64,000 nt of DNA from NCBI GenBank assembly GCA_037447435.1, contig JBBIGR010000002.1, forward strand, positions 96,001 through 160,000. Direction: 5' to 3'. The translations under genes were made by a program, and so were the position numbers. How positions within the stretch are numbered: position 1 is the first letter of the stretch; every line of letters starts with the position of its first letter. The DNA comes from Fibrobacteria bacterium. Its GTDB lineage: Bacteria; Fibrobacterota; Chitinivibrionia; Chitinivibrionales; FEN-1185. A model generated the notes under the pieces. It was not told the DNA's origin, did not search any database, and saw nothing but the letters and a program-made list of their open reading frames with translations. Shown here one piece after another: positions 33,015-37,578 of the stretch.

Positions 33015-33836
33015 ATGATAAAAGCCCAATACCCTTTTTCTCCAAATAAATCCGGCAGTGGTCCGTTATTTTTTATTGCCGGCCCCTGTGTGATAGAATC
33101 GGAACGTTTATGTCTGGATATTGCCGAAACACTGGCAAAGGTCTCAATAAAAGAAAATGTCACGATTATTTTCAAGGCTTCCTACGACAAGGCCAATCGT
33201 ACTTCGGCCTCATCCTTTCGGGGTCTTGGCATGAAAAAGGGGCTTTCCATTCTGGGAAAAGTAAAAAAGCAATTCGGATTGCCCATAGTCACCGACATCC
33301 ACACCCCGGACCAAGCAGCCCAGGTCGCCGCAATCGCCGACGTTCTGCAAATACCCGCATTTTTATGCCGACAAACCGATCTACTGACGGCTGCAAAAAA
33401 AACCGGCAAAATCGTGAATGTGAAAAAAGGACAATTCGTCGCACCCGGCGACATGAAATACTCTCTTGACAAGGCCGGCAAAAAATCGTGGATTACCGAA
33501 CGCGGAACTTTTTTCGGCTACAACAGATTGGTTGTTGATTTTGCCGGGATCCCGATTTTAAAAAGCTTCGGAGTCCCGGTTATTTTCGACGCTACCCATA
33601 GCGTCCAAATGCCCAGTGCGGGAAACGGCGTGTCCGGCGGTAATCGCGACCTGGCGATACCGCTTGCGCAAGCAGCGGTCTGCGCAGGGGTAAACGGACT
33701 TTTTTTCGAAATACATCCGACACCCGACAAAGCCCTTTGCGACGGCCCCAACAGCATTTCGGTGAAAGATTTTGTAAAGAATGTTCCGAGAATGCTGGAA
33801 TTGCATGATAAGGTAACGGGGTGGCGAGCCGATTGA
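33015..33836 (+). CDS. kdsA: KDO 8-phosphate synthase
   Basis: AGPCVIES, KASYDKANRTS, QIPAFLCRQTDL, DATHSVQ, CDG. Confidence 0.96.
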   Translation: MIKAQYPFSPNKSGSGPLFFIAGPCVIESERLCLDIAETLAKVSIKENVTIIFKASYDKANRTSASSFRGLGMKKGLSILGKVKKQFGLPIVTDIHTPDQAAQVAAIADVLQIPAFLCRQTDLLTAAKKTGKIVNVKKGQFVAPGDMKYSLDKAGKKSWITERGTFFGYNRLVVDFAGIPILKSFGVPVIFDATHSVQMPSAGNGVSGGNRDLAIPLAQAAVCAGVNGLFFEIHPTPDKALCDGPNSISVKDFVKNVPRMLELHDKVTGWRAD

Positions 33837-33888: not shown

Positions 33889-34120
33889 TGTTCGGCATTA
33901 ATTAAAAATAGTGCAGAAGACCCAAAAAGATGTTCAGGAAAGCATAAAAATAGTGCAGAAGAGTAAAAAAGTAATGCAGCTACCGTTTTTCTTAAAATTT
34001 TTGTGTGTTCTGTACATAAAATAGCACTTCTTGGTGTGTTTCTTACTTTGCGTTAGGTCAAATTGCCTTTTCTGCACTATTTTTTTGGATTTCTGCACTA
34101 TTTTTACCCTCATCCGAACA
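33889..34120. repeat. 232-bp non-coding element with imperfect TG...CA terminal inverted repeats and 21-bp-phased subrepeats (MITE-like)
   Basis: AAAAATAGTGCAGAA at 33904 and 33946; its reverse complement at 34070 and 34091; TGTTCGG...CCGAACA ends. Confidence 0.6.
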
Positions 34121-34122
34121 TT

Positions 34123-34183
34123 CTATCTACCGTGCTCCCGGTCTATCTTATCCAGATCGGCAAGGCGTTTCTTTGCAAACGCG
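34123..34183 (-). repeat. Orphan copy 1 of the Ser/Thr kinase 3' end (AFAKKRLADLDKIDREHGR*)
   Basis: Direct repeat of the kinase 3' end starting at 35926, with mostly synonymous changes. Confidence 0.92.
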
Positions 34184-34218
34184 ATTGCCGGCATAAATAT
34201 TTTTCTAAGTTGGGTGGC

Positions 34219-34407
34219 TTATAAAACAAATTGCTTATCCTTTAATCTCGGAAAGGGAGTATTGACTTTTTCGACACCAATTTCCTCTAAAAAATTCAAA
34301 TATTCCTCTAAATCCGGTTTGGCAATCTTTTTTTTATCAATTTTCGCAATTTGGTCAATAAACGCCTTCTCCAACTTGTCCCATTTTAAATCAAGATCAT
34401 TTTCCAT
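34219..34407 (-). CDS. 62-aa hypothetical protein, partner of the upstream nucleotidyltransferase
   Basis: ATG 34407 overlaps the upstream gene end; EEYLNFLEE..FVL tail. Confidence 0.65.
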   Translation of the reverse strand: MENDLDLKWDKLEKAFIDQIAKIDKKKIAKPDLEEYLNFLEEIGVEKVNTPFPRLKDKQFVL

Positions 34408-34936
34408 TTCCGGATTCCTCTGAGATTTCGTTGTAATACGATTCCATTCCGAATTTTTTGAAATATTCCGCAACCTTCTGTTTATCGTATTTCGCATGAT
34501 TAAGAATTTCTTTTATATCTGCAAAATCCTTAAATTTTCTTTCCGGATTATTTTTAACAGCAAACAACTTCATTGCAATTAAATGTTCGGGGCTGACTAC
34601 GGGCAATTCAAGACCTTGAAAAACCTGCCTTTTTTCAATTGATCCCAATATCGAATCAGCTGTCGCGCCGTCCACATACATAATATCAACCCTGACTGAA
34701 CCAAGAGGATGCAGAAAGTTAGAAAAAGATTCTGAACTGAAAACAGTCTCAAAACCAAGTGATGTAAGGTAGGAAGTTATTTTATCGCGATTTTCAACTC
34801 TGGTAACAAAATCTACATCCCTGGTGGCTCTTATATATCCATAGGAAAAAAGTGCGAATGCCCCGATAATGCCATATTCAATTTTTTCACGAAGGAAAAA
34901 CCCCGTAAGTATTTCGATAATGGATTTCAAGCTCAT
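34397..34936 (-). CDS. DNA polymerase beta-like nucleotidyltransferase (DUF6036/AbiEii-like)
   Basis: IGAFAL..YG..RATRDVDF, V.SPEHLIAMK, R..KD..DI; start 34936 or 34948. Confidence 0.85.
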   Translation of the reverse strand: MSLKSIIEILTGFFLREKIEYGIIGAFALFSYGYIRATRDVDFVTRVENRDKITSYLTSLGFETVFSSESFSNFLHPLGSVRVDIMYVDGATADSILGSIEKRQVFQGLELPVVSPEHLIAMKLFAVKNNPERKFKDFADIKEILNHAKYDKQKVAEYFKKFGMESYYNEISEESGNGK

Positions 34937-34993
34937 ATTTATTTCCATTTTCAAAAACAAATTACTTGTCTTGCTTTCGCCTGCAAGACCCCA

Positions 34994-35059
34994 TCACCGT
35001 CCGTGCTCCCGGTCTATCTTATCCAGGTCGGCCAGGCGTTTTTTTGCAAACGCGCATTC
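34994..35059 (-). repeat. Orphan copy 2 of the Ser/Thr kinase 3' end (ECAFAKKRLADLDKIDREHGR*)
   Basis: Direct repeat of 35926..35991; preceded by an in-frame TAA. Confidence 0.92.
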
Positions 35060-35092
35060 TTAGGAACCGTGCGATGATTCGACAGTTTCTAA

Positions 35093-35572
35093 TTACAATT
35101 CTTTAACTTTGGCCTGATCGAGGAACCTTAGAACATTTTTCTTGAATCGTCCAACAACATCATCCGCCAAGCATAAAGTCCCAATCACTGTTTCCTTGTC
35201 AAAAGTAACGGCATAACCATGGGCAACAATATGCCTGAATTTTCGAAGCATTGTTAAGAGTGGAAAAAGATTAGCATCTGCAAGTATTGGTAAGCTGGGA
35301 TCGTGACCATCACTATCATTAAACATGCCTATCAGTTCAGCATGCCAAAACGATCCTGAGGGCAAAGACGCATCACAATATTTAGTAACCCGTTTCAGAA
35401 TATTTTCGACACCATTATAGCACTGAGCAAGATAGGTTGCGCCCGCAGTAATATCCGAACGCGAGACAATAGCATTTTTTTCGTTCTCAAGAATGAGCCG
35501 GATCTCTTCCAGCGTTTCATCCATTCTGGCAAATTCAATTGCAATATCTTCGGATAGATCATCTAATGTCAT
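35093..35572 (-). CDS. HEPN-domain RNase toxin (HepT-like)
   Basis: YNGVENI, WH.EL, FRHIVAH (Rx4H) motif. Confidence 0.88.
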   Translation of the reverse strand: MTLDDLSEDIAIEFARMDETLEEIRLILENEKNAIVSRSDITAGATYLAQCYNGVENILKRVTKYCDASLPSGSFWHAELIGMFNDSDGHDPSLPILADANLFPLLTMLRKFRHIVAHGYAVTFDKETVIGTLCLADDVVGRFKKNVLRFLDQAKVKEL

Positions 35573-35834
35573 ATATCATCCTGCCTCGACGTTCGTTGAC
35601 TTCCACAAATCTTGTTCGAGGCAAGCCCGGCACAACGTCTACAGATGCATGCGCTTCATGTTCCATCATTCCCGCCATTTCAAAGAAAGAAGGGCCCACC
35701 ACTCCTTCACAAAGCAAGTCTATGTCCCGTGCATTCTCCGGGTCGGTTACTGCACTGCCAAAAAGCACGAGTTTTCTTGCCCCATAGCGACGGGCAATTT
35801 CCACACATTTGTTTATTTGTTCACTTGTAACCAT
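35559..35834 (-). CDS. Minimal nucleotidyltransferase antitoxin (MntA-like)
   Basis: LFGS...DIDL...VDVV; 91 aa; overlaps the HEPN gene start. Confidence 0.88.
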   Translation of the reverse strand: MVTSEQINKCVEIARRYGARKLVLFGSAVTDPENARDIDLLCEGVVGPSFFEMAGMMEHEAHASVDVVPGLPRTRFVEVNERRGRMIYDIR

Positions 35835-35925
35835 GAATACTCCTTATCCGTTGCTTTGCAACTGGATAGGTTTAGCTGTGATCATATATGTGCGTGCACT
35901 TCGATATTTTTTATATAGTTATTAA

Positions 35926-37578
35926 TCACCTTCCATGCTCGCGATCCAGTTTATCCAGATCGGCAAGGCGTTTCTTTGCAAACGCGCATTCTTCCGACGA
36001 ATGCGTCGAACAATCGGCAAATTCAAGGTAATAATTCCACGCCTTGACCGCGTCCATGAGCAGGGCCTGGCCATAATTGTCCATGGCGGCTTTTTTATCG
36101 AGCGTCGAGGCATGATAGAACAAAATTTCTTTTTTAAAATCCGCGTTCAATTGCATGACCGAGCCGGTCTGCGACGACAAAGACGCTTCGAGCCGGTCTT
36201 TCGCCTCGTCGAACATACCGAGACGGAAATATGCCTGGCCTAAATACGCGTCTATTGCCGGATCCGAATAGCTGCGACGAAGATGCTCCAATATCTTCCG
36301 CGCTTTGTCGTATTGGCGGTCGCGCTTGAGCAGCAGTGTGGCCAATCGGATTTGCGCCTCGAGGTATTCGTTTGCCAAACCGCCCTTTTCCATCGACGGC
36401 ACCATCTGGTACATCTGCATCGCTTCCGACCATCTGCCGTCGTGTTCGAGCGTTTTTCCCCGCTCGAGGACCGGGATATTGACGCCTTGCGAAAGCCTCG
36501 GGACCCCCGCATCGAGAAACATGGTCCGCCACAATGCCGTTGCCGACATTAAAAGCGCCGCAAGGGAAACGATAAAAGCGATAAGCCCGAAATTCCGCTT
36601 AAAGGAAAACGGTACCTTCAGTTTTTTGCCGATCCCCCAGGCAGAATACGATTGAATGCATATCTGCAAGTCTTCAAGGATTTCTTTTTCCGATTTGGGA
36701 CGGTGATCCGGACTTTTCGACAGGAGCTTGTCGATGATCTCTTCGGTGAGCGCCGATATGGCCGGTCTGATTTTCTTTATTTTGGTGTATTTGCATTCGT
36801 TGATTTTCTGTATGAGGCCGGTCAGGTTTTCGCCCACGAAAGGCTTTTGATTTGTAAACAATTCATACATAACGATGCCGAGCGAAAAGAAATCGCTCCG
36901 CACATCCAGATTTCCGCCGGCCAATTGTTCCGGCGACATATAATGGAATGTGCCCACGATCATGCCCTGCATGGTATTAGAGGTGATATTCAGGGGCTTT
37001 GCCGCGCCGAAATCCATCAATTTGACGAGTTTACCGGATGTGATCATGATGTTTTCGGGCTTGATGTCGCGATGCAGTATTCCGTGTATGACCTCGCCGC
37101 TCGGGCCCGAGATTTCCACGTTATGCGCATACTGCAACGCCTTGGTCACCTGCGACGCGATGGAAAGAATGTCCCGTTCCGAAATTTTCGGATTGGAAAT
37201 CATATATTCGCGCAACGTCTGACCGCTGATGTATTCCATTTCCATGTAGAAATAACCGTTGACTTCGCCGGTATCGAACACCCGTAAAATATTGGGATGA
37301 TCAAGGCGGGCCGTGAGCTGGGCTTCCTGCCGGAAACGGATGAAGAAATCCTCTTCGTCCATGAGCGACGGTTTCAGAATCTTAATGACCCGATCGAGAT
37401 CAAACGGAATATTATGCGCTTTGTAAATGAACGCCGTGCCGCCTTCGTTGATCTTTTCTATGATCTGACAATTACCAATTGTTTTGCCGATGAAGGGATC
37501 CTGTTGATGGGCAATCGGCGACGTATCGACAATGAGTTCGTCGCCGGCATACCCGGATATCCTCGTATGCGACATCAC
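35926..37578 (-). CDS. Hanks-type Ser/Thr protein kinase with TM helix and TPR-like extracytoplasmic domain
   Basis: HRDIKPEN, DFG, GT..YMSPEQ, D.FSLG; TM FGLIAFIVSLAALLM. Confidence 0.95.
   Translation of the reverse strand: MMSHTRISGYAGDELIVDTSPIAHQQDPFIGKTIGNCQIIEKINEGGTAFIYKAHNIPFDLDRVIKILKPSLMDEEDFFIRFRQEAQLTARLDHPNILRVFDTGEVNGYFYMEMEYISGQTLREYMISNPKISERDILSIASQVTKALQYAHNVEISGPSGEVIHGILHRDIKPENIMITSGKLVKLMDFGAAKPLNITSNTMQGMIVGTFHYMSPEQLAGGNLDVRSDFFSLGIVMYELFTNQKPFVGENLTGLIQKINECKYTKIKKIRPAISALTEEIIDKLLSKSPDHRPKSEKEILEDLQICIQSYSAWGIGKKLKVPFSFKRNFGLIAFIVSLAALLMSATALWRTMFLDAGVPRLSQGVNIPVLERGKTLEHDGRWSEAMQMYQMVPSMEKGGLANEYLEAQIRLATLLLKRDRQYDKARKILEHLRRSYSDPAIDAYLGQAYFRLGMFDEAKDRLEASLSSQTGSVMQLNADFKKEILFYHASTLDKKAAMDNYGQALLMDAVKAWNYYLEFADCSTHSSEECAFAKKRLADLDKLDREHGR

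Follow-up and report, generated by a model that had tools for sequence, protein, structure and literature searches.

Two sub-kilobase gene pairs of predicted toxin–antitoxin type lie in tandem behind a Ser/Thr protein kinase gene in the window (the whole 64,000-nt stretch of Fibrobacteria DNA that was analysed), and each is followed by an orphan, synonymously altered copy of the last 20 codons of the kinase. We lean towards an account in which each module entered as a small circle, composed of the module and part of the kinase end of a relative, by one homologous crossover and without a dedicated integrase; toxin addiction may then hold the module in place. The first-pass annotation had proposed that units accrete in tandem at a protein gene's 3′ end, each replacing the tail and displacing the old one, and the data presented here support this.

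Results

Kinase tails alternate with cargo modules

The three tail copies share orientation and register, with start-to-start spacings of 932 and 871 nt, and all stop at the same codon, as initially described (Table 1). The MNT–HEPN pair separates the native tail from copy 2, and the nucleotidyltransferase with its 62-residue partner separates copy 2 from copy 3. BLASTN recovers the tail copies with E-values of 1e-13 to 1e-17 and, across the whole 5.05-Mb genome, no further hit better than E 0.06; the match to copy 3 begins at 34183, 8 nt later than that to copy 2. The kdsA-like gene forms the right border of the variable interval, and this border is kept in four genomes of the genus and in three metagenome contigs.

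Table 1. Features of the kinase locus (window positions) and gene-end brackets in genomes of the family
Feature	Position or genome	Strand	Evidence or detail
Ser/Thr protein kinase, C-terminal TPR region, 550 aa; owner of the repeated tail	35926..37578	-	Pfam Pkinase E 1e-46 and TPR families
Native kinase tail, blocks A1 B1 C1	35926..35993	-	Tail comparison
Perfect 6-nt inverted repeat, 6-nt spacer, at start of repeated segment	35968..35985		Candidate recombinase core if site-specific elements inserted here
8-nt stretch common to all three copies; putative crossover interval for cassette 1	35951..35958	-	Runs test p = 0.003
REP/MITE-like dispersed hairpin repeat, 80 nt, between kinase stop and MNT start	35846..35925	-	
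MNT nucleotidyltransferase, 91 aa, predicted antitoxin, GS-x9-DxD	35559..35834	-	Pfam Polbeta/NTP_transf_2 weak, E 0.03; PADLOC PDC-S09 E 2e-7
HEPN (HepT-like) RNase, 159 aa, predicted toxin, intact Rx4HxY	35093..35572	-	HepT-like_2 E 6e-19
Tail copy 2, orphan, blocks A2 B2 C2, 68 nt, 85% identical to native tail, stop at end	34994..35061	-	
AbiEii/DUF1814-like nucleotidyltransferase, 179 aa	34397..34936	-	Pfam AbiEii E 4e-8, over cut-off
62-aa protein, overlaps nucleotidyltransferase stop	34219..34407	-	Sequence
Tail copy 3, orphan, blocks A1 B2 C3, 61 nt	34123..34183	-	
Non-coding element, 233 nt; repeats at 21- or 42-nt spacing form inverted arms	33889..34121		Fold z = -5.4
kdsA-like DAHP/KDO8P synthase family gene, convergent	33015..33836	+	Pfam DAHP_synth_1 E 6e-63
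rfbC bracket	G002		Two orphan tails 207-241 nt, 82-87%, and 45-nt piece
radA bracket	G007		87-nt tail and 60-77-nt piece
LacI-family regulator bracket	G006		61 nt, 100%
queH bracket	G006		40-44 nt, 80-82%
Histidine kinase bracket	G006		147 nt, 88%
PilT-like ATPase bracket	G006		153 nt, 93%
CDP-alcohol phosphatidyltransferase bracket	G001		29 nt, one mismatch
Mirror case: 5′ end of downstream gene duplicated	G004		93 nt, 98%

As first reported, the cargo is small, integrase-free and, by prediction, of toxin–antitoxin type, with one pair in each interval; it is AT-rich, with a GC content of 31–47% (GC3 0.33–0.41) versus 49–50% (GC3 0.51–0.63) in the kinase, pgm and kdsA genes. An MNT gene followed by an overlapping HEPN gene with Rx4HxY, the HEPN-toxin motif as defined in PMC7641770, resembles the Class I HepT/MntA (type VII) systems treated there. 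By comparison, the MNT protein has 9 rather than 10 residues between GS and DxD, and the HEPN protein, a predicted toxin, belongs to Pfam HepT-like_2. The AbiEii-like nucleotidyltransferase has 45 homologues with 51–82% identity, and a similar small partner follows it in several relatives; the 62-aa protein itself matched no family above cut-off and yielded no informative match in the ESM Atlas.

Beyond the first-pass annotation, and apart from the tail mosaicism described below, the interval contains an 80-nt dispersed repeat and a 233-nt inverted array. A profile of the REP/MITE-like repeat matches the genome 105 times at E ≤ 0.01, and the repeat is missing at the kinase–MNT junction of the closest relative. 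The 233-nt element starts 2 nt past the stop of copy 3, has a second copy on contig C93 (87%) and shows no Rfam match.

That the array is an assembly chimera of strain alleles, or a free 1.8-kb circle collapsed into the contig, is extremely unlikely. The genome is metagenome-derived, and because the native tail and copy 3 have a 36-nt block in common, the 1.8-kb unit forms a loop in the 31-mer graph, with pieces that break exactly there. Among the Logan contigs of run X1, which may be the source sample, there is nevertheless a 1,827-nt piece that covers copy 2 and both flanks with 0 differences and at a depth of 13, compared with 10–12 in the flanks. This agreement argues against a strain chimera, and five further family assemblies show the same bracket design. 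The Logan contigs list no differences from 34067 to 36600; they also reveal no circle, empty site or crossover, and the 36-nt block would mask an empty site or free circle at the Logan word length.

The tails are mosaics of working alleles

The native tail and copy 2 differ at 10 of 66 nt, comprising eight single synonymous changes and 2 nt in one codon (L>I), in agreement with the initial count, and there are zero amino-acid differences between copies 2 and 3 across 19 codons. Tail differences are thus almost all synonymous (pS 0.44–0.59, pN 0–0.03), with binomial p-values for the excess of 2e-4 (native/copy 2), 3e-3 (native/copy 3) and 2e-4 (copy 2/copy 3). The copies therefore derive from working alleles, and the proposal that selection on the peptide has shaped the orphan tails is upheld by this excess.

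The tails are also mosaics, with breakpoints at two places. Their informative sites run XXX YYYYYY ZXZZZ (p = 0.003, permutation/runs test), and of 25 synonymous-capable sites, the final 13 contain all 10 native/copy-3 differences (p = 9e-5). Such a pattern is explained by two types of allele that crossed over at different points. The 8-nt stretch common to all three copies sits between the last site at which the native tail equals copy 3 and the first at which copy 2 equals copy 3. The last 25 nt of the native tail would have arrived with cassette 1, and copy 3 would be the oldest resident tail. Identity between the native tail and copy 2 is nowhere unbroken for more than 19 nt, which makes a poor RecA substrate.

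A single fixed crossover site is favoured by the similar starts of the orphans and by the inverted repeat at the beginning of the repeated segment, but opposed by the mosaic breakpoints, which lie at two other positions. Such inverted repeats occur within 8 nt of 0.8% of 20,000 random coding positions, and copy 3 with its upstream flank folds into a hairpin (z = -3.3). These features suit another explanation, namely that the two units are CIME-like remnants of elements whose integrase was specific for the kinase tail: after tandem insertion at a fixed site close to the 6-nt inverted repeat, the elements would have lost all but their att sites and an addictive module, or would have been moved in trans, and later gene conversion would have produced the mosaic. 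We regard this as unlikely. In its favour, the kinase boundary carries the inverted repeat, which the flank of copy 3 extends to a hairpin, whereas the mosaic calls for extra conversion events, and the spacers between cargo and tail measure only 31–35 nt as read from the sequence. That integrase-less remnants accrete in tandem at the 3′ ends of genes is established (PMC7563491, PMC5704250), and e14 is known to supply icd with a replacement tail that differs by synonymous changes (PMC13626634).

Gene-end brackets recur across the family

Kinase orthologues are present in 44 of the 80 other genomes of the class. No tail copy was found at any of 45 related kinase loci, and a tail-profile search of 81 whole genomes returned strong extra copies only in the present genome, so that a kinase-specific hotspot, as postulated in the first-pass annotation, is not supported. 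In the closest relative, L054 (kinase 92% identical), the order is kinase–MNT–HEPN–kdsA without a tail copy, and an MNT homologue of 67% identity directly follows the kinase. The comparison of relatives that had been suggested as a check is hence partly unfavourable: cassettes of the same kind occur without tail repeats, and variable arrays were not observed at the kinase.

By contrast with the kinase orthologues, eight other unrelated genes of the family have MNT/HEPN modules bracketed by 29–241-nt copies of the neighbouring gene's end, one of the eight being a 5′ end, and such brackets occur in six of eight family genomes. Repeat identity across the nine loci ranges from perfect down to 78%, and no motif is shared among the nine repeated segments (best E 0.35). 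This recurrence without a shared motif, together with the mosaic copies, does not bear out the idea of one fixed recombination site. The rfbC copies (210 nt, G002) are likewise blocky, with a run of 11 sites of one pattern; both full rfbC orphans begin at the same codon, and the two radA pieces abut without overlap. Of 373 gene ends in MNT-centred loci, 7 have an orphan copy, compared with none of the 451 in loci centred on the kinase (Fisher p = 0.004; p = 0.008 when one probable paralogue fragment is left out), p-values that are overstated because kin are not independent and the background includes more distant families. Brackets are sporadic, as orthologues without a tail copy are seen at LacI (4/4 genomes), rfbC (3/3) and radA (6/6), and most modules have none: the nine loci compare with 71 distinct MNT-motif genes in family loci.

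These data bear on remnants of integrative elements in both directions. The near-identical orphan starts at the kinase and rfbC and the abutting radA pieces accord with them. However, the nine targets are unrelated, with accessory genes and one 5′ end among them, so that every one would need an integrase of its own; each element would have to leave only a module of mostly 0.8–1.2 kb, and the segments have no common motif and no inverted repeat at the six other boundaries tested in relatives.

A further possibility, which we consider even less probable, is that foreign linear DNA was trapped by homology-facilitated illegitimate recombination or a template switch without any circle. One end would pair in the kinase (or kdsA) and the other would join at microhomology inside the kinase tail, each orphan being the tail of recipient or donor. 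Patchy similarity just upstream of several orphan starts, as microhomology would give, was detected with a combined p = 0.004 over 9 junctions, of which only two fall below 0.05 individually, in a test biased by junction boundaries taken from BLAST ends. The 29-, 61- and 93-nt repeats of relatives, which are near-perfect, may have arisen as first-time duplications, ComEC is encoded in the genome, and the route has been proposed for Vibrio T6SS immunity-gene arrays (PMC5361080). On the other hand, insertion by this route normally goes with a deletion of similar size, and in E. coli the route was ten times rarer than that of the trimmed circle (PMC3240628). Nor would it lead one to expect two orphans with a common start, or A and B blocks exchanged between copy 2 and the native tail.

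Recombinases of the genome and the kinase tail

A Pfam scan of the 54 ORFs in the window confirmed the lack of a recognizable integrase or transposase. The genome as a whole holds seven tyrosine recombinases and one large serine recombinase, as well as a 2.5-kb integrase-less island bracketed by a 21–27-nt guaA-end repeat, all of which would be in keeping with decayed integrative elements. Two of the three phage-type integrases adjoin tRNA genes instead. An integrase-linked kinase tail was not found in 81 genomes of the class, in a metagenome scan (5 loci) or in a viral scan (3 unrelated hits), a result that means not found rather than absent since very close relatives are scarce; with just one relative as close as 92%, a lineage-specific integrase could be missed. 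Mobilisation by an HUH enzyme (IS200/IS605, REP/RAYT or IS91/ISCR type) would call for a Y1 or Y2 transposase, but the genome (G000, 99.6% complete) gave 0 matches for PF01797 and for PF04986; a Y2 HUH transposase is present in three of seven other family genomes.

The likeness to an integron that had been suggested survives as a loose analogy, in that small modules are added serially at one point, in our reading with the newest first. Contig C10 encodes an intI gene over the TIGR02249 cut-off and an intI-like gene. In the window, no integron integrase or attI adjoins the array, no attC-type pair (RYYYAAC...GTTRRRY) occurs within 170 nt on either strand, the cassette ends pair no better than shuffles (p 0.16–0.83), and the repeat is host coding sequence. 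An integron array was therefore rejected.

Discussion

On the basis of these results, we somewhat favour accretion by homologous crossover without an integrase. In a rare illegitimate event, a module would first land beside a gene without creating a repeat, the state seen in L054. DNA spanning the gene end and the module would then reach another cell, where it would be trimmed and closed into a circle; alternatively, the circle would loop out between existing repeats. A single homologous crossover inside the shared tail would restore an intact gene with the incoming ending and push the old ending downstream of the module. Further rounds of these steps would stack modules with the newest next to the gene, cassette 2 having come first and cassette 1 second by a crossover at 35951–35958, and loss by the reverse crossover would likely be slowed by repeat divergence and toxin addiction.

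The mosaic tails, the same bracket at eight unrelated genes with no shared motif, the enrichment at MNT loci together with the sporadic distribution, the donor-like L054 arrangement without a tail copy, the failure of our searches to find an integrase-linked tail and the presence of ComEC all count for integrase-free accretion. That most modules are unbracketed counts against it, as do the short and diverged kinase repeats, which lie below the E. coli range given below. Moreover, the start of the kinase orphans within 8 nt at an inverted repeat, the same-codon start of both full rfbC orphans and the abutting radA pieces fit fixed cut sites better.

As described in PMC3240628, incoming linear DNA with one homologous end is trimmed in E. 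coli, re-circularised and integrated by a RecA-dependent single crossover, with 109–950 bp duplicated in 56 of 60 clones. Foreign insertion with partial duplication of a homologous gene and no integrase is common to both cases, but the E. coli events took place in the laboratory with identical homology, whereas the repeats here span 57–68 nt, are 85–94% identical and record a process deduced from sequence. The same two-step circle model has been proposed for Rhs C-terminal displacement (PMC2935791), in which a new unit enters via gene-end homology and shunts the old end downstream. Both systems leave end fragments of variable length without a recombinase (here 61 and 68 nt; 29–241 nt across the family). 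What varies in Rhs is the toxin tip, which forms one protein with the core and has a cognate immunity gene, whereas here the peptide of the tail is conserved and the two cargo genes form a module of their own behind ordinary housekeeping or regulatory genes.

CIMEs and microCIMEs at Streptococcus rpmG, rpsI, fda and rplL, as presented in PMC7563491 and PMC5704250, are similar in stacking integrase-less units with small cargo at the 3′ end of a protein gene that stays intact, in being flanked by direct repeats of which the gene end forms part, and in lacking recombinase and conjugation genes of their own. They are defined there as decayed ICEs or IMEs at recurrent integrase targets, usually in tandem with a helper; here, the searches found neither a helper nor a cognate integrase, the kinase does not recur as a target, the repeats are longer and mosaic, and the design extends to nine unrelated genes. 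The e14 element in icd, with its icdC fragment, provides attached and displaced ends that likewise differ mainly synonymously and both stem from working alleles; according to PMC13626634 it is a 15-kb element with its own site-specific excision, compared with units below 1 kb and without a recombinase here.

How solitary toxin–antitoxin operons that lack mobility genes pass from one chromosome to another is an open question in the field, and here footprints of such movement are readable, with nine loci in one family and mappable mosaic breakpoints. The locus also offers a sub-kilobase substrate for comparing RecA with site-specific recombinases. If the array were a CIME stack, it would be an ordinary addition to that class, at a target that is unusual. 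Should the homology-driven route prove right, a unit without an integrase at the end of a gene need not be what remains of an integrative element, and programs that search for islands on the assumption of an integrase will misinterpret such units. It is possible, albeit doubtful, that toxin–antitoxin operons of this uncultured Fibrobacterota family spread generally as integrase-free minicircles that home by the end of the bordering gene, with addiction locking the stacks. In that case any gene end could become an accretion site, and selfish two-gene modules that encode no mobility protein would have a general route of spread.

Tandem gene-end copies behind the kinase

The final 61–68 nt of the Ser/Thr kinase gene are present in two more copies in the kinase–kdsA interval, at spacings of 932 and 871 nt, and the stop codon occupies the identical codon position in every tail copy (see table). 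The native tail and copy 2 differ at 10 of 66 nt, 8 of the changes being synonymous and 2 lying in one Leu-to-Ile codon, exactly as counted in the first-pass annotation, and its report of no integrase or transposase in the window likewise stands. Outside these three copies the tail has no further occurrence in G000, the 5.05-Mb, 99.6% complete genome whose contig C2 carries the window. Since homologues bear the source label Chitinivibrionales, the organism would belong to the Fibrobacterota. The array is real; that it is an artefact of assembly is very improbable.

Both units have a higher AT content than the neighbouring genes, and their gene pairs are predicted from sequence to be toxin–antitoxin modules. 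The HEPN protein of unit 1 retains an intact Rx4HxY motif (as defined in PMC7641770). An ESM Atlas search with the 62-aa protein returned no informative match, an Rfam search gave 0 matches, and scans for promoters and terminators scored no higher than shuffled sequence.

Two non-coding elements accompany the modules. The dispersed hairpin repeat, with 105 profile matches in G000, looks REP/MITE-like; its copies are often framed by an identical four-letter sequence on either side, and some lie in tandem. Despite this appearance, neither a Y1 nor a Y2 HUH transposase was matched in G000. Remnants of the repeat in the spacers were considered and rejected, as 119 and 58 of 600 null windows scored equally high. 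The second copy of the 233-nt element follows a 257-aa gene; this gene is absent at the window locus and has three further copies in G000 (56–70% identity).

Features of the kinase locus and of related loci
Feature	Location	Strand	Remarks
Ser/Thr kinase with TPRs	35926–37578	−	550 aa; convergent with kdsA-like gene
Dispersed repeat copy	35846–35925		80–95 nt, two hairpins; ~100 further sites in G000
Unit 1			80-nt dispersed hairpin repeat copy, MNT gene, overlapping HEPN gene
Tail copy 2	34994–35061		
Unit 2			AbiEii-like nucleotidyltransferase (NTase, 179 aa) and 62-aa partner
Tail copy 3	34123–34183		
233-nt non-coding element	33889–34121		Inverted repeat arms at 21/42-nt spacing; begins 2 nt past copy 3
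kdsA-like gene	33015–33836		Faces the kinase
233-nt element, second copy	G000 C93:2594–2840		
guaA 3′-end repeat	G000 C7:147890–150450		
Integron integrase	G000 C10:95–1390		Over TIGR02249 cut-off; near contig end
intI-like gene	G000 C10:112923–114149		Below TIGR02249 cut-off; among housekeeping genes
rfbC	G002		A pair of orphan tails plus one shorter piece, MNT/HEPN modules between; mosaic
radA (L176)	G007:C172:720–2770		Orphan tail pieces bracket
PilT-like ATPase gene (L231)	G006:C51:2800–9000		Bracketed
LacI-family regulator, queH, histidine kinase	G006		Bracketed
CDP-alcohol phosphatidyltransferase	G001		Bracketed
Mirror case	G004		5′ 93 nt of downstream gene repeated upstream of module
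Array of small gene pairs (L180)	G071:C63:26000–37000		

Allelic origin and mosaic structure of the tails

Compared with one another, the three tail copies show synonymous difference proportions (pS) of 0.44–0.59 and nonsynonymous proportions (pN) of 0–0.03. By a cruder count the G000 kinase diverges by ~0.62, near the tail pS, from that of its closest relative (locus L054; kinase 92% identical), and the Ile of the orphan tails is the usual residue in relatives. The copies thus derive from working alleles, and their apparent recoding is allelic. Allelic gene ends are likewise described for e14 in icd/icdC (PMC13626634).

The tail repeat splits into three blocks: in block A (36 nt) the native tail equals copy 3, in block B (18 nt) copy 2 equals copy 3, and in block C (7 nt) the native tail approximates copy 2. 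The order of informative sites along the tails is non-random (p = 0.003), and the differences between the native tail and copy 3 all fall in blocks B and C (10/10, p = 9e-5). In the simplest history of this mosaic, cassette 2 would have come first, with a perfect 54-nt repeat on its two sides, and cassette 1 second, its foreign allele entering through a crossover between blocks A and B (35951–35958). A fixed crossover at the repeat start with later conversion also fits, but needs more steps. A longer stretch of decayed kinase sequence ahead of copy 2 was marginal and not established (p 0.017 with two references, p 0.07 in another test; 10/150 shuffled sequences and 22/150 windows of the genome did as well).

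The kinase locus in relatives

The proposal of a kinase-specific hotspot was not borne out: BLASTN and TBLASTN detected a tail copy at none of 45 related kinase loci (at least 1 kb downstream in 38, at least 3 kb in 32), two weak TBLASTN matches (E 0.004 and 0.008) being treated as chance. A tail profile run against 81 whole genomes recovered both G000 orphans, a single strong match apiece in 44 other genomes and five weak matches (E 6e-4 to 0.03); it revealed no comparable orphan tail outside G000, its sensitivity being limited for short tails in distant genera. These comparisons indicate that the kinase is not a recurrent hotspot. A phage carrying the kinase tail was also rejected, the 3 viral matches representing an unrelated protein.

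At L054 the order is kinase, MNT (67%), HEPN (40%) and kdsA, with neither a tail copy nor a dispersed repeat. The first 147 nt of its MNT gene are 87% identical to the window (35699–35845), followed by abrupt divergence; the comparison suggests that the MNT 5′ half may have served as an anchor for exchange of the remainder of the module. The signal for a decayed tail after the L054 HEPN gene was not significant (p 0.96–0.995). A ParA-like ATPase gene directly follows the kinase in 5 genomes of the genus and in 4 of 5 contigs from metagenomes (L031–L034, L036, L050–L053); it is not in the G000 or L054 interval. At another kinase locus, L078 (G044:C513), a YefM/YoeB-like pair, identified by eye from the translations, separates the kinase from its neighbour, and no tail copy accompanies it; genus relatives have no such pair at that position.

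Homologues of the cassettes themselves were also surveyed. Those of both modules occupy unrelated places with no gene-tail repeat: such repeats were found at 0 of 10 loci with NTase-module homologues and beside neither of the close MNT homologues (79% and 60%; three distant hits left out). A scan of genome contigs with the NTase as query gave no match.

Brackets beside MNT genes at other genes of the family

Loci around MNT and HEPN genes were gathered from the class and family and searched for bracketing repeats. This yielded eight further bracketed loci, spread over five of the seven other family genomes (see table); among the loci examined in the remaining two, G003 and G005, there were none. 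The repeats measure 29–241 nt, are 78–100% identical and have no motif in common. Orthologues lack the bracket at the LacI-family regulator (4/4), rfbC (3/3, one with only a 174-nt flank) and radA (6/6), and those of the CDP-alcohol phosphatidyltransferase abut the convergent neighbour in 3 of 4 cases.

At radA the two orphan pieces, in swapped order and with a 330-aa ORF without Pfam family between them, abut exactly on the gene map; more than any other observation, this hints at a fixed cut site. At L231 a broken reading frame adjoins the orphan PilT-like tail; judged by eye, it may resemble the zinc region at the N-terminus of IS91-type transposases. L180 holds an array of several small toxin–antitoxin-like pairs separated by four related intergenic repeats of 130–280 nt, and one MNT-containing 350-nt stretch is duplicated there.

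In one fixed scan, orphan copies turned up for 7 of the 373 gene ends that 83 MNT-centred loci contain, as against 0 of 451 in 44 kinase-centred loci. In these counts one of the seven is probably a paralogue fragment, 4 of the 83 loci are wider refetches with repeats already seen beforehand, queH and the 5′-end case are missed, and kin are not independent. Across G000 the scan gave 4 hits in 4,948 ORF ends, 1 of them a true case. Other candidate tail duplications inspected in G000, several judged from the listing alone, were paralogues or internal domain repeats, except for a short guaA repeat. From the enrichment beside MNT genes we infer that addiction may keep the brackets in place.

Origin of the brackets

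We lean towards a homology-driven process behind the brackets. It is favoured over nine separate integrases because the nine targets are unrelated and include a 5′-end case, and because repeat lengths vary, copies are mosaic and the donor-like L054 lacks a bracket. In such a model, linear DNA with one homologous end would be trimmed, close into a circle and enter by a single crossover that duplicates the gene end. For E. coli, PMC3240628 describes such DNA, trimmed and circularized, integrating by RecA-dependent single crossover with duplication of 109–950 bp, ten times more commonly than by an illegitimate route, which deletes instead; PMC2935791 proposes the same circle model for Rhs tip displacement. 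Illegitimate trapping of linear DNA, a route proposed in PMC5361080, we consider improbable as the source of the brackets.

Four observations count against homology: the longest identical run in the kinase repeats is 19 nt, orphan tails share a start point at the kinase and again at rfbC, the radA pieces abut, and a 6-nt inverted repeat lies at the kinase boundary (0.8% background; none at 6 other boundaries). On account of these, we retain as a tentative, rather unlikely alternative that the units are integrase-less remnants at a gene end, that is, cis-mobilizable elements (CIMEs). PMC7563491 and PMC5704250 offer a precedent for tandem accretion, and G000 has candidate recombinases and a short island of this type at guaA; however, no G000 recombinase is linked to the kinase tail. 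The guaA 3′ end recurs 2.5 kb downstream (21 nt exact, 27 with flank), the island is AT-rich and without integrase, and a small gene and NTase pair follow the repeat.

In its way of working the kinase array resembles target-restoring tandem accretion and Rhs C-terminal displacement, whereas it departs in a defining feature from integrons, Rhs and, as far as searched, CIMEs. Paired cassette ends or attC sites at the locus were rejected, and a search for attC across the genome returned 6 hits, all unconvincing and none of them at the kinase. A full-text literature search of partial coverage gave no paper on toxin–antitoxin modules that lie, at unrelated genes, between copies of the end of a neighbouring gene. 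The present analysis adds that, within one family, the bracket follows the type of cargo and not the target gene.
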